Of a stretch of 52,005 nt of DNA, positions 1-9,000 are shown piece by piece. How positions within the stretch are numbered: position 1 is the first letter of the stretch; each line of letters begins with the position of its first letter. This DNA is from a virus (taxonomy: Duplodnaviria > Heunggongvirae > Uroviricota > Caudoviricetes), in IMG/VR virus record IMGVR_UViG_2534681674_000035. One strand, 5' to 3'. A program made the position numbers.

Positions 1-3000
1 ATGCCCCTAAATGATATGCAGATTCGCCGTGCTAAACCTGAAGCTAAAGCCTATACACTTGGGGATGGGCAAGGGTTGTCTTTACTTGTAGAGCCAAATG
101 GAAGTAAAAGCTGGCGATTTCGTTATCGCTATGCCGGTAAACCCAAAATGATCTCGCTTGGTGTTTACCCAACGATCACTCTTGCTGATGCTCGTTCCCG
201 TCGTGATGAAGCTCGAAAACTTGTGGCAGAAGGAAAGAACCCTAGTGAGGTTCGAAAAGAGCAAAAGCTGGCTCTGCAAACAGAGTCAGAGAACGCCTTC
301 GAAAAGATAGCCAGAGAGTGGCATCAACAGAAGTCTACCAAATGGTCGGCGGGATATGCATCAGACATCATGGAAGCGTTTAAGAACGACATTTTTCCTT
401 ATGTGGGAACAAGGCCAGTGGGAGAGATTAAACCGCTAGAACTGCTTAATGTGCTGCGTAAAATCGAAAAGCGCGGAGCATTAGAAAAAATGCGCAAAGT
501 TCGGCAGCGATGCTCAGAAGTTTTCCGCTATGCCATTGCTACTGGAAGGGCTGAGTTTAACCCTGCTGCGGATCTTTCAAGCGCCCTCAATGTACACCAA
601 TCAAATCATTTCCCGTTCTTAAAGGCTAATGAGATACCTGATTTTCTTCGCGCCTTAAACGGATATACCGGAAGTCGGCTTGTCCTGATTGCCACGAAAT
701 TGCTCATGATTACAGGTGTTAGAACCATCGAATTACGTGCGGCATTATGGTCAGAATTTGATTTAGATAACGCTATTTGGGAAATTCCTGCTGAAAGGAT
801 GAAAATGCGCAGATCACACCTTGTGCCTTTGTCGACTCAAGCGTTAGATTTGCTAAATGAACTCAAGATGATGACAGGGAAGTATAGTTATGTTTTTCCG
901 GGGCGGAACGATCCGAACAAGCCTATGAGTGAGGCGAGTATTAACCAAGTTATCAAGCGTATTGGTTATGGTGGAAAACTTACTGGTCATGGATTTCGAC
1001 ATTCCTTATCTACTATCCTCCACGAAAAAGGATATGATTCGGCTTGGATAGAAATACAGCTTGCTCATATAGATAAGAATAATATTAGAGGTACGTATAA
1101 TCATGCTCAATATATTGATAAACGCCGTGATATGATGCAGTGGTATTCAGATTATATTTTTATTAAGGAGAATGTGAATGAGTAACGAGTTTGATAGTAG
1201 TAAACTAGAAAATTGCTTTGAGCTTGCATTGGAAAATATTATAAAGCACGGCGATACAGATATTTTCCCTTACCCATTTGAAAGTCGGTTATTTGAAGAT
1301 GATAAGGAGAAAGTAAAAACTGCATTAATGCAAACATTTAATGACTTTGAAAATAAAAGGATCGAGATTCCACCAAACATAATTAATAGCTTTTCAAGTA
1401 TTGGTTATTATGGTTACAGGTGGGCGACCCAAATTGATCCATTCTGGAATGCTTTTTTTCTTGGGTTAGTTTTAAAAATCGCTGATGATATTGAAAGGAA
1501 TAGATCTACTAAAACGCAGGTTTATTCATATCGCTTTAAACCAAACCTTGCTGATGGTTCTCTTTTTGATAAAGAGATCTCTTGGAGAAAATATCAAGAA
1601 GACAGTATCTCTGAATGTTCTAACGATGAAATAAAGTATGTACTTACATGCGATATAGCAGATTTCTATCCGCGTATTTATCACCACCGTTTAGAAAATG
1701 CGTTAGATAGAGTAGACCCCAATAAAGATTACTCTGGGAAAATCAAGAAATTACTACAGACATTTAGTGAAACAAAATCATATGGAGTACCAGTTGGATG
1801 TCCTGCCTCTAGAATATTAGCAGAACTAGCTCTAGATTCTATTGATAAATTATTGTCTATGAATAGAATCAACTATAAGCGTTATGTCGACGACTTTGTT
1901 ATTTTTTGTAACTCTAGAGAGGATGCTCATAAGATTTTAACTTTGCTTAGTAAAAAACTGATGGAAAATGAAGGGCTAACTTTACAGAAACAAAAAACCA
2001 ATATTGTTACTAAAGAAGAGTTCCTTTCAGTAACTAAAGCTAAGTTGCATGGTAATGATGAAGATGAAGAATCTCCTATGAAGGCTAAATTTATGAGTCT
2101 TCCTATAAGATTCGATCCTTACTCAGCAAATGCGATAGAGGAATATGAAGAGATAAAGGAATCTTTAAAAGATTTTGACTTGTTAGCTATGCTGAGTAGT
2201 GAGTTACAAAAATCAAAAATTAACCAATCTTTTAGCAAGCATTTGATAAAGGCATTCTCAGCAACATCAGATGAAATAATAAGTAGTGCTTTCAAAGTAA
2301 TGTTTAATAACTTGCATGAGTTATATCCAATATTTACAACTATAATTCAAGTAGCTAACTCCAACTGGCAAAAATTAAGCACAGAAACCAAAGATATTAT
2401 TCTTGATAAAATAACTGCACTAATTAAACAAGATTCATATATTTTGAGTACTGAGCTCAACTTAGCCTATGTAGCCCGAATGCTCTCAAAAGAAAATTCA
2501 GAAAAATCCACCCTAATCCTTAGTGAAATATACAATAACAATCCAGAAAGCATCTTAGTCAAGAACATAGTTACACAGTCAATGGCAAAAATTAATTCTT
2601 ACGCATGGCTTTCTGATATCAAAAAAAATTTCTCTGCAATGCATCCGTTGCAGAGAAGACTATTGATCGTTTCCAGTTACATCTTAGGTGATGAAGGACG
2701 GCACTGGAGAGAGCATAATAAGAAAACATTCAACTTTGTAGAGGTGATTTACAGGGATTGGGCAAGTAAAAGGCATACCGCAAGAAATCTTGAGGATGCG
2801 CTATGATATCTGAATTAACGTTTTCTCGAAAATTCACTTCATTTTGGAATCAATTGCTTCCAAATGCTAATAATTTCATACGCATCATTAACGGCAGTCT
2901 CATCGAGGACGTTTATCCTCCTCTAGATGACTGCGCTAATAGGTCAAATAACGTCTTTGTCAATGAGTGCGCATTTAATTTATATAGGGCAATACAGAAT

Positions 3001-6000: not shown

Positions 6001-9000
6001 TTGTGCTGTTTATTACTGTTTGTTTTTATTAATTCGCCGGGAATGAATAAGAAAAAACGATTTGTATTTCACTATAAAAATTACGAATTGCTTTAAGTGG
6101 CTTTAAATGACTTTAAGTGGAGATGAACAAAAAACACACAAGCATTGTAAGGCTGCCGGAACAAATCCCCCCTGTTGCGTCTGCTGAAAATATTCACAAA
6201 ATAAAGCGCTATCCGAAGCCGGACGGACTTATCCGGTGCTGTATGGACATTAACGAGGTAGCCCGATGCAAGCTGTTTTTTCTTCCCCGTCTCCCGCCCC
6301 TGTGACGCCACTGATGCCGCTGCCGGACATCACACAGGAGCGTTTTTTACGTCTTCCGGAAGTGATGCACCTGTGCGGCCTGTCACGCTCGACCATCTAT
6401 GAACTCATCCGTAAGGGGGAATTTCCGCCGCAGGTGAGTCTTGGCGGTAAAAATGTGGCCTGGCTGCACTCTGAAGTCACCGCATGGATGGCCGGGCGCA
6501 TTGCCGGACGCAAACGGGGGTACGACGCATGATGATGCCCGCTCTGCAAAAACTCCCTTTTTCTGGCTTGCCTTTTTCCGGCATTTGCGGATATAGTTTT
6601 TCCGCTGCCGCAAAATCGGCAGCCGGGCGTGAGAACCCGAGCAATTCACAGGCGACATATGACGCGCCACGCGTCTTTTTTGTGTCGCAATCAATGCCAC
6701 AGAGCGCCAGATTATGGTGTGGTGTGTGGTCAGTCGTGCAGATGGCATTCCGTGCATCCTGCCCGCGTCCGCTCATTATGCCGCAGAGTCAATGGTAGCT
6801 CAGGCGGGGCAGCCTCCGGGCTGGCCGGTATCCTGTGAAGCCGGTATTCTCACCCCCGTCTGGGCTATCGCCATCGAGCGTGAGAACTCCGGCGATAGCG
6901 TTATTTGCTATTCACAGGAGGCTGCCATCATGGCTACAACCCTTACCCCCTCACACCCTGAATTTGTCTTTGTGTTTGCGGCTGTCCGTCGCGCAGACCG
7001 TCATCCCCGTATCTGTATGCTTCGCACCGTCGCCGGTGATGAACGCAGCGCCCGCCGTTCCCTTGTCCGTGACTATGTGCTCTCCCTTGCTGCCCGTCTG
7101 CCGGTGGTGGAGGTGTCCCGTGCGTAATAAAAAAGCCCCTCAGACCGTCTCAGCGCGTCATGACGCCCGTGAACACCTCAGCATTGAGGCTTACCATAAG
7201 CTCAACCGCGCCAGCGCCGTATCCCGGTTTGTTGGGGGTGATTTGATTCACCGTGAACTCTCCGGCCTGCATCAGCTCTACATTCCGCATATTTTCAGCT
7301 ACCTGAATGAAGATATTGATTTTGTGCTGAATGAGCTGAAAGCCAAAGGCCTGTGCCGCGATTTTCTCGCCCAGCAGAAAGACCGGGGAGACAGGACGCA
7401 TGTTTGATTTTCGCCAGCCACTTTAAGAAGGACTACAACCGGACAGTAGCAATAAATACAGCCACTTACGGACACAAGCCAGACAGTAGTCGGACTGAAA
7501 AAAGACAAAAATATACACGTGAAATGCACGTGCACTTCTAAAAAACCCCAGTTATCACCGACTGGGGTTTTTCAATTTGTAACTAAGGGTAACAAAAACA
7601 CCCCCGTTTTTTTCATCTCACTCACCTTGACACTGTTTATTTGTACAGTTAAAAATAATACTGTATACAAACACAGTATAGGGGGGGACTTTTATGCGTA
7701 TTGAAATCTGCATAGCCAAAGAAAAAATGACTAAAATGCCAAACGGTGCTGTGGATGCGTTAAAGGAAGAATTAACCCGACGCATCAGTAAACGTTATGA
7801 CGATGTAGAGGTGATCGTAAAAGCCACCAGCAACGATGGCCTTTCTGTTACGCGCACCGCCGATAAAGATTCAGCTAAAACTTTTGTTCAGGAGACTCTG
7901 AAAGATACCTGGAAGTCTGCTGACGAGTGGTTTGTTCACTAATTAACACGTAAAATCGGTAACGGCTGGAAATCATTCAATACTCGCACTATCGAAAGTT
8001 CACCAGCCAACAGCGGTAAGTTCTTTCATACGACGTGCCGCGGATCCTATTATTCTAGTATGAAATCCCTAACCGATTTCAAATTCTCCAGACTGCTCAG
8101 ATTCTCTTTTATCCCACGCTGGCGCTGATAAATCTCGTCATTGCAATCGACCTGCGCTATCGCTGCCGCAGTTCTTCCAGTTTCTGCATCGATAACTCCA
8201 TCTTCTGAGCAATAAACCTCACCTATGCAATATTTTATGTCAATTATTTCAATTGCATTAATATCTTGAATGGATTACATAGAGTTAATGTATCCAGTAC
8301 TCCCTATTCTCTTGCATATAATACATGTTGCAACTTACATCTCAGCGCTATGAAAAAACACCACCTCTCTCTTTATGAAATTCTGGATTTACCAAGCGCT
8401 AATTTATCATTTCAATCTACCTTTAAGCATTGCATTTATCTCCCTACGAGGTCATACTTTAGGAAGTTAAATATGAATGATAATATACCTACAGCGCGAA
8501 ATCACAAACAATCGACTTGTATTACAGAAAAAAACATGCCTATCTTTTTAAACTTCACAGCAGGCAGTATCTTACCTGAGAATGAGCTAGCATCTTTACG
8601 TTATATTGTGCAGCAAAATCAAAATGATACTGTAATCATAAAAGAACGTTATAAAATGGATATCCGTTATATCGAATCAGTCAATGGTTTTACAGTAAAT
8701 CCTGTATGCAGTAATCATTTCTCCATATTTATGGCGAGACAAAACACTATTGCTCGCAACCTGGAACAGCAGATCAACAACGGACGAAGTTTTGCACAAA
8801 TATCTCAGGATTTTATGCTTCAATTATCTTCAAATATAGGATGGAAAAAAGGGGCCGAAAACGCCCTTAAAAATAAAATCCATTCTCATTCATTTGTTGT
8901 AAATCCTGATGAATTCTCTTGCGACACACAATTTCTTAAGTGCCCAATAACATTATGCGTTCCAGAAAAAGGGGTTTTTGTCAAGAACGCACTGAACTCC

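Follow-up and report, generated by a model that had tools for sequence, protein, structure and literature searches.

A P4-type satellite remnant beside a lambdoid prophage: probable decay of an ssrA array and a likely chimeric contig

The first 7419 positions of virus record IMGVR_UViG_2534681674_000035 (Caudoviricetes; 52,005 nucleotides, the whole of which is called the window here) are a P4-type satellite, which breaks off within its gene ORF151 and continues directly into the attachment (att) arm of a lambdoid prophage. The account that we favour, to which we assign a probability of about 0.65, is that satellite and phage had come to stand in tandem at ssrA, the tmRNA gene, that a deletion then ran from ORF151 into the ssrA-derived att core, and that the pairing of this junction with the integrase and cargo genes seen in the window is the product of a chimeric contig. 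The adjacency of satellite and lambdoid prophage is the shared use of the ssrA integration hotspot, not a helper relation.

An earlier note on the window had stated that the satellite abuts a lambda-like prophage, which is borne out: homology to P4 and to intact elements stops at position 7419, after the first 20 nucleotides of ORF151 (7400-7419, plus strand), and the lambdoid arm starts at 7420. The stretch 7420-7693 is the attachment-site arm of an ssrA-integrating lambdoid phage. It directly follows the last base of ssrA in about 400 complete genomes of enterohaemorrhagic Escherichia coli (EHEC; O157:H7, O111, O145:H28) and likewise in the record of the cryptic Stx1 prophage CP-1639 (AJ304858), the sequence reading ...CGCCAGCTCCACCA/CTTTAAGAAGG... 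across the boundary, and it carries arm-type integrase-binding repeats at 7430-7449 and 7470-7489, 40 nucleotides apart, as well as a terminator-like hairpin at 7541-7572. At its other end the ssrA lambdoid phage is cut by insertion sequences (ISs) and lacks an integrase in the copies of O145, O111, 2013C-4974, OkiPb01713 and CP-1639; both prophage ends were obtained only from PhiR12_1, a relative of 78% identity, whose att region carries approximately 36 nucleotides of the ssrA 3' end.

Comparison with the O145 ssrA/prophage junction and with intact P4-like sequence resolves the junction (7412-7423, CGCCAGCCACTT) into P4 sequence, an ssrA-like G at 7413, the last ssrA bases and the phage arm, with GATTTTCGCCAGCCACTTTAAGAAGG as the exact P4/lambdoid joint. 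Intact ssrA-type satellites carry the att core CCGCCAGCTC in attL and attR. The junction, identical in seven loci, keeps CGCCAGC including the ssrA-like G (7413), which is seen in none of 22 intact P4-like loci; all 22 have C at this position. The 9-mer CAGCCACTT at junction positions 7415-7423 recurs 44 nucleotides downstream in the phage arm (7459-7467); with a chance expectation of approximately 0.2, this recurrence may be meaningless or may represent a core-type site of the integrase.

The joint is also present in at least five other assemblies (E. coli 2013C-4974, OkiPb01713, CP027597.1, CP061253.1 and PVMF01000005.1), in all five of which it is located at ssrA and combined with an integrase and cargo different from those of the window. 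The order in these assemblies is ssrA, integrase of 399 amino acids (aa), ABC-three-component/DUF2326 cargo, psu, delta, sid, alpA, Icd, epsilon, junction, DinI, NleG7 and tail fibres. In all five the satellite stands between ssrA and the lambdoid prophage, which fits a satellite that arrived after the phage. The junction is best read as inherited in a small lineage of Shiga toxin-producing E. coli (STEC).

The window matches, with 100% identity, part of contig AEZJ02000036.1 (452,795 bp) of the draft assembly GCA_000194215.2, in which the order is proA-thrW-window-integrase-sbcB. On the 5' side of the window this contig carries phoE, proB, proA and tRNA-Thr (thrW), and on the 3' side a 392-aa sbcB-type integrase followed by sbcB; it consequently links the thrW region to the sbcB region in the same orientation via pieces of the ssrA locus. 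The contig was reached through the frameshift-specific 89-aa fragment of the Icd/Ash-like ORF and through the N protein, whereas the integrase, the 137-aa Ash fragment, DinI, the 291-aa protein, Ea22 and Lar did not lead to it. The three loci thrW, ssrA and sbcB lie apart from one another in the closest complete genomes and are all in direct orientation in 2013C-4974. Positions 1-7419 share 99.95% identity with the satellite that 2013C-4974 carries intact at thrW, positions 7082-31411 match the late region of the ssrA-locus prophage of the same strain, positions 31412-37694 are a mosaic with respect to the closest complete genomes, and positions 37695-52005 agree at 99.94% with the prophage that CP027597.1 carries at sbcB, down to the same IS insertion.

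Within the satellite, the change from one type to the other can be confined to one interval. Positions 3657-4646 differ at 24 sites from the ssrA-type element L003, while from 4647 to 7412 the only differences from L003 are two (6212 and 6676), both of which also differ from the thrW-type element L001. The stretch 4647-7412 is identical in thrW-type and ssrA-type elements, and the switch from thrW to ssrA type lies somewhere inside it; from position 7413, which is G as in the ssrA-type loci and C in L001, the window is of ssrA type. Positions 1-9500 of the window are found in one place in 0 of 5,426 complete E. coli genomes. The T run at 6671-6676 is one base shorter, and the G run at 7681-7687 is two bases longer than in all relatives, differences that are private to the source assembly and could be sequencing errors instead of mutations.

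A chimeric contig in the draft assembly is the likely explanation of this three-locus mosaic. The window would join the ssrA junction to the integrase-cargo portion of another, widespread satellite that integrates at thrW, the satellite switch falling within the 2.8 kb identical in thrW and ssrA satellites, and at a second switch the prophage would change into the sbcB-locus prophage. A chimera is favoured because each switch sits in or beside sequence common to the loci and because replication of a chromosome arranged in that order would be difficult. On the chimeric reading, the thrW DRT8 satellite is probably complete in the strain, with alpha at the true thrW locus, while the real remnant would, on the best reading, sit at ssrA with another integrase and other cargo. 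The proposal of the earlier note that the remnant had retained its own defence cargo is not supported, as integrase and cargo differ in the five assemblies and the int-DRT8 half is that of the intact thrW element; on these grounds the pairing of integrase and DRT8 with the junction is probably a chimeric join. Nor does alpha lie adjacent on the chromosome in the contig as assembled, which is where it would be expected had the window simply split an intact element.

As to the origin of the junction itself, the lambdoid phage would have occupied the 3' end of ssrA before a P4-like satellite with an ssrA-specific integrase inserted at ssrA, yielding the order ssrA, satellite, displaced ssrA 3' fragment and lambdoid prophage. 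A single deletion starting at codon 7 of ORF151 and ending inside the displaced ssrA core would subsequently have created the joint. The tandem intermediate is expected to show an intact ssrA-type satellite attR followed by CTTTAAGAAGGACTACAACC, and the lambdoid attP to read ...GCCAGCTCCACCACTTTAAG; a reading of ...CGCCAGCCACTTTAAG would contradict the deletion model.

Several points weigh against this combined account. The chimera is inferred indirectly, from the comparison of loci, and the window contains only three or four homopolymer differences, which are all that a search for a 454-type error profile gave and do not strongly point to a poor assembly. The argument from replication relies on the positions of rrnG and the Ter sites on the K-12 map. 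With respect to the deletion, an in-register integrase exchange gives ...CGCCAGCTCCACCACTTTAAG, compared with which the junction is 5 nucleotides (TCCAC) short, a gap for which a variant att core without TCCAC would account, and a plain deletion through CC microhomology requires an additional C-to-G change. The start of ORF151 agrees with the ssrA 3' end at 19 of 32 positions, which within the element only ties with two other sites over a span picked post hoc, and with queries of 26 or 20 nucleotides the match is not among the best. The tandem intermediate, an intact ssrA satellite with this lambdoid arm behind it, was not found.

The extent of the loss is evident from intact relatives and P4, in which epsilon is followed by ORF151, ORF106/DUF5375, the 777-aa alpha primase-helicase, crr and attR. 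The satellite of the window has lost ORF151 except for 20 nucleotides, ORF106, alpha, crr and attR, and no trace of the missing 3.3-3.8 kb, alpha included, is present elsewhere in the 52-kb window. Copies of the thrW and ssrA att cores were sought in the window, and none besides the junction itself and no thrW-core attR were detected. The earlier note was right that the alpha primase-helicase is missing, as the window holds no alpha sequence, and partly right that the replication region is missing: alpha and crr are lost, but ori is retained between sid and vis (approximately 5490-6230), so that the region is partly and not wholly absent. With attR, alpha and crr absent, neither an attL/attR pair nor alpha acting at ori/crr, which along with packaging by a P2-like helper are the hallmarks of a mobile P4-like satellite, is in place, and from established P4 biology the remnant would be unable to replicate or excise because these three components are lost. 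Satellites without alpha form a frequent class, termed 'Type B' (Moura de Sousa and Rocha, PMC8628076), and positions 1-7419 are best read from their sequence as a non-mobile P4-type remnant and a degraded member of this class lacking alpha.

Loss of sequence is also observed in other DRT8 satellites at thrW (L015, L016, L017 and L020), which carry differing internal deletions, such as a fusion of delta to the DUF5375 region or the loss of everything after psu. At several of these loci additional elements stand in tandem in the space that separates thrW from the integrase, and both stacking and decay are common at this site.

If the contig were nevertheless correct, the thrW satellite would have undergone homologous recombination with the ssrA remnant, and the ssrA prophage with the sbcB prophage, in a natural STEC isolate. 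We regard this as unlikely, even though the 452-kb contig AEZJ02000036.1 runs unbroken through both switch points, the P4 switch lies within identical sequence, as homologous recombination needs, and inter-prophage recombination with large rearrangements is known in STEC (PMC8112680). As the three loci are in direct orientation, such exchanges would swap arcs of 1.8 Mb and 0.7 Mb without inversion, and the arrangement occurs in none of the 5,426 complete genomes. On the K-12 map, rrnG would be placed head-on to replication, with more than 1 Mb between opposed Ter sites. Should the contig be correct after all, satellites and prophages would act as portable homology for chromosomal translocation on the megabase scale, and the remnant left behind, fixed and non-excisable, would continue to express DRT8 together with the P2-interfering sid, psu and delta. 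Slightly less probable again is a genuine P4/lambdoid junction at thrW combined with an artefact confined to the second switch. In this case a lambdoid genome would have acquired the neighbouring P4 remnant by aberrant excision, similar to the formation of a specialised transducing phage, and would then have integrated into the thrW satellite by homology, with ORF151, alpha and attR beyond the true right end of the prophage. Identity over 2.8 kb suffices for RecA-dependent integration and the window prophage has a full set of late genes; however, a rare biological event and an assembly error are both required, sbcB and not P4 sequence follows the prophage integrase in the contig, and the structure is in no other assembly. 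It was considered separately whether a thrW-type P4 circle had entered the ssrA remnant by Campbell-type insertion; this was rejected, as alpha would be expected just left of the window, where the contig has proA-thrW.

The alternative put forward in the earlier note, either a remnant or an insertion of the lambdoid prophage into or next to the satellite, is upheld for the remnant but not for the insertion, as sbcB follows the prophage integrase and the junction is no clean integrase product. That the integrase of the lambdoid phage used a secondary att site at the start of ORF151 and split the satellite is accordingly quite improbable. The break does coincide exactly with the boundary of the phage att arm, the 19/32 match to ssrA is tied best within the element, and the junction contains the ssrA-like G. 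Against this, none of the junction-bearing genomes examined carries the missing satellite half past the prophage, the joint is 5 nucleotides shorter than a conservative exchange would leave it, and the position of the satellite between ssrA and phage in the relatives fits tandem insertion followed by deletion. A prophage within a prophage would be recognized by a copy of attB and both halves of the resident element on its flanks; the 19/32 match is all there is of the former, and a second half was not found.

It is very improbable that exploitation of the lambdoid phage as a helper is what keeps the remnant next to it; in favour of this stand only the contact of the two elements and the fact that psu, delta and sid are intact. 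The cos of the remnant is of the P2/P4 type, its Sid, Delta and Epsilon are near-identical to the P4 proteins, which act on P2 components (review cited in PMC8628076), alpha, crr and attR are missing, and in about 400 genomes no satellite accompanies the same lambdoid arm at ssrA. The earlier note had called it unusual that delta, sid and psu are retained next to a lambda-like helper, an impression that is dispelled by the shared ssrA site and by the frequency of satellites without alpha (PMC8628076).

The gene features were taken from the ORF listing and from matches to Pfam and PADLOC, and the RNAs from Rfam. They confirm that positions 1-7419 are a P4-type satellite and that, as had been noticed before, the order int, cargo, psu, delta, sid, AlpA-Vis is P4-like. 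The element starts with a P4-type tyrosine integrase of 394 aa and of the thrW-specific type (1-1185, plus strand; Pfam Arm-DNA-bind_3, Phage_int_M and Phage_integrase), which in the source contig and in relatives is located 165 bp downstream of tRNA-Thr (thrW), after proA. The cargo that follows consists of a DRT8 reverse transcriptase (1178-2806, plus strand; PADLOC Drt8, E=4.9e-166; Pfam RVT_1) and its 246-aa partner, a reverse transcriptase-associated PD-(D/E)XK nuclease-like protein (2803-3543, plus strand; PADLOC RTasPDDEXK, E=5.5e-69). A UG/Abi-class reverse transcriptase of the Drt8 group together with a nuclease effector is what characterizes DRT8, the usual effector of which is a nuclease (bioRxiv 10.1101/2023.01.24.525353), and the two genes of the window are adjacent and overlap; anti-phage activity is reported at the family level only and the mechanism is not established (PMC13213688). 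The G+C content of the cargo is 31-37%, compared with about 50-58% in the P4 core. In P4-like elements the defence hotspot lies between int and psu, beside cos (Rousset et al., PMC9122126), and the DRT8 cargo occupies this integrase-psu hotspot adjoining cos.

When aligned to the P4 record with its ends joined, the window shows the predicted equivalent of the cos 19-mer, GGCGTGGCGGGGGGAGCAT, at 3663-3681 (minus strand), where 15 of 19 positions are identical to the P2/P4 cos and the flank is conserved with P4; the P4 match ends at 11624, the end of the P4 record. From 3682 to 7419 the window shows 98.2% DNA identity to P4 coordinates 11624-7876. Three genes for helper subversion, all on the minus strand, come next: psu (3846-4418; Pfam Psu, E=4.8e-88; 186 of 190 residues as in P4 Psu), delta, the Ogr/Delta zinc-finger activator (4492-4992; Pfam Ogr_Delta; 161 of 166 residues as in P4 Delta), and sid for capsid size determination (4989-5723; 239 of 244 residues as in P4 Sid, without a match to a Pfam model). 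The P4 ori and the Psid/PLL/PLE control region are placed at approximately 5490-6230 by homology to P4 rep_origin 9086-9809 via the 98.2% alignment. On the plus strand, vis/alpA (ORF88; 6266-6532; Pfam Phage_AlpA, E=7e-21; 87 of 88 residues as in P4 ORF88) is followed by an Icd/Ash-like ORF (6529-7127), the old P4 'cI' ORF, with a Pfam Phage_ASH match on its C-terminal part; it is frameshifted at the T run 6671-6676, which is one T short compared with L001 and L003, and encodes a 199-aa protein in relatives.

The 'two small ORFs' which the earlier note placed after AlpA are in fact epsilon and the immunity region of P4, which includes the CI RNA. This part contains, all on the plus strand, CI-RNA target sequences (c4-a1b1) with an isrK-like RNA (6591-6681; Rfam RF03163, 49.5 bits; RF01394, 69.7 bits), the P4 CI immunity RNA of the C4 antisense RNA family (6788-6875; RF01695, 74.9 bits against a gathering score of 45) and epsilon, the helper derepression protein (7120-7407; Pfam Derepression, E=9e-51; 95 of 95 residues as in P4 epsilon). 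As far as epsilon, the order int-hotspot-cos-psu-delta-sid-alpA-epsilon matches that of integrated P4-like satellites. Of the core set of integrase, psu, delta, sid, alpA, epsilon (ash) and alpha (PMC8628076, PMC13586616), six of seven genes are found in the window, alpha being the missing one. If expressed, the remnant could plausibly interfere with P2-like phages via epsilon, delta, sid and psu, and could contribute defence through DRT8.

The lambdoid prophage begins with a DinI-like gene (7694-7942, plus strand; Pfam DinI), after which NleG and tail fibres follow. Its effector end (8266-10286) contains an NleG7-like type III secretion system effector (8536-9186 as annotated in relatives) and a conserved 291-aa protein without a domain match (9411-10286, minus strand), and in other strains this module of DinI, NleG and the 291-aa protein is also encountered at several other chromosomal loci. 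The tail-fibre N-terminal protein (10698-11717, 339 aa) has long low-complexity repeats rich in Ala, Ser and Glu; the O145/O111 version has 437 aa. Between the gene for a Q-like antiterminator and the lysis genes, tRNA-Thr(TGT) and tRNA-Asn(GTT) are located at 33253-33408. Related sbcB prophages have stx1a at the position of this tRNA pair, and no stx gene is present here. In the early-left operon, an IS3-family insertion (IS629/IS1203-like; 44561-45870) separates an 83-aa gene from cIII; it is also present in the sbcB-locus prophage of CP027597.1 and absent at that site in 2013C-4974.

The far end of the prophage does not carry an ssrA-type integrase; the integrase in the contig is of the sbcB type. 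In the two sbcB-locus prophages compared, the integrases agree at 98%, while the match to the integrase of the ssrA phage PhiR12_1 is 21% over a local stretch of 122 residues, which is not significant (E=2.8). By comparison of its parts, the prophage as assembled is a hybrid of a left ssrA-type arm with lambda-like late genes and a right early region with an sbcB-type integrase. The assembled prophage could not be excised by an integrase to which its att arm does not correspond.

What appeared to be a truncated satellite with retained defence cargo is probably two elements from two loci, joined by the assembler, and surveys of satellites or defence systems that use draft EHEC genomes can inherit such assembly errors. 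The locus otherwise illustrates what is known: tRNA and tmRNA genes gather satellites and prophages in tandem, these arrays decay through deletions which fix remnants in place, and near-identical P4 backbones around one chromosome constitute long homology tracts.

Compared with phage P4 (NC_001609/X51522), the segment cos-psu-delta-sid-ori-vis-CI RNA-epsilon has the 98.2% DNA identity given above and the same order, but the integrase is of the thrW type where P4 has the leuX type, the hotspot holds DRT8 in place of gop-beta-cII, and ORF151, ORF106, alpha, crr and attR are gone. With the 'Type B' satellites (PMC8628076; SatelliteFinder, PMC10085698) the element shares six of seven core components and the absence of alpha, while its loss, in contrast to theirs, would be traceable to one deletion ending in an ssrA-derived att core beside a prophage. 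The thrW element of 2013C-4974 (NZ_CP027587.1, 5219892-5230551) has the same integrase and cargo, with 99.95% identity over positions 1-7419, and unlike the window is complete, with ORF151, DUF5375, alpha and attR beside paoD. The STEC ssrA arrays (2013C-4974, OkiPb01713, CP027597.1) possess the identical junction and the DinI/NleG7/291-aa/tail-fibre end; they differ in the ssrA-type 399-aa integrase, in the ABC-three-component/DUF2326 cargo and in their location after ssrA and not thrW. Tandem and nested prophage clusters with inter-prophage recombination have been described in STEC (Nakamura et al., 2021, PMC8112680); these are composed of lambdoid phages with attB copies, whereas here one partner is of P4 type and no attB has been shown, but the pile-up at one att site, the decay and the recombination are alike. 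The biology of the locus is ordinary and has in kind already been described (PMC8628076, PMC9122126, PMC8112680).

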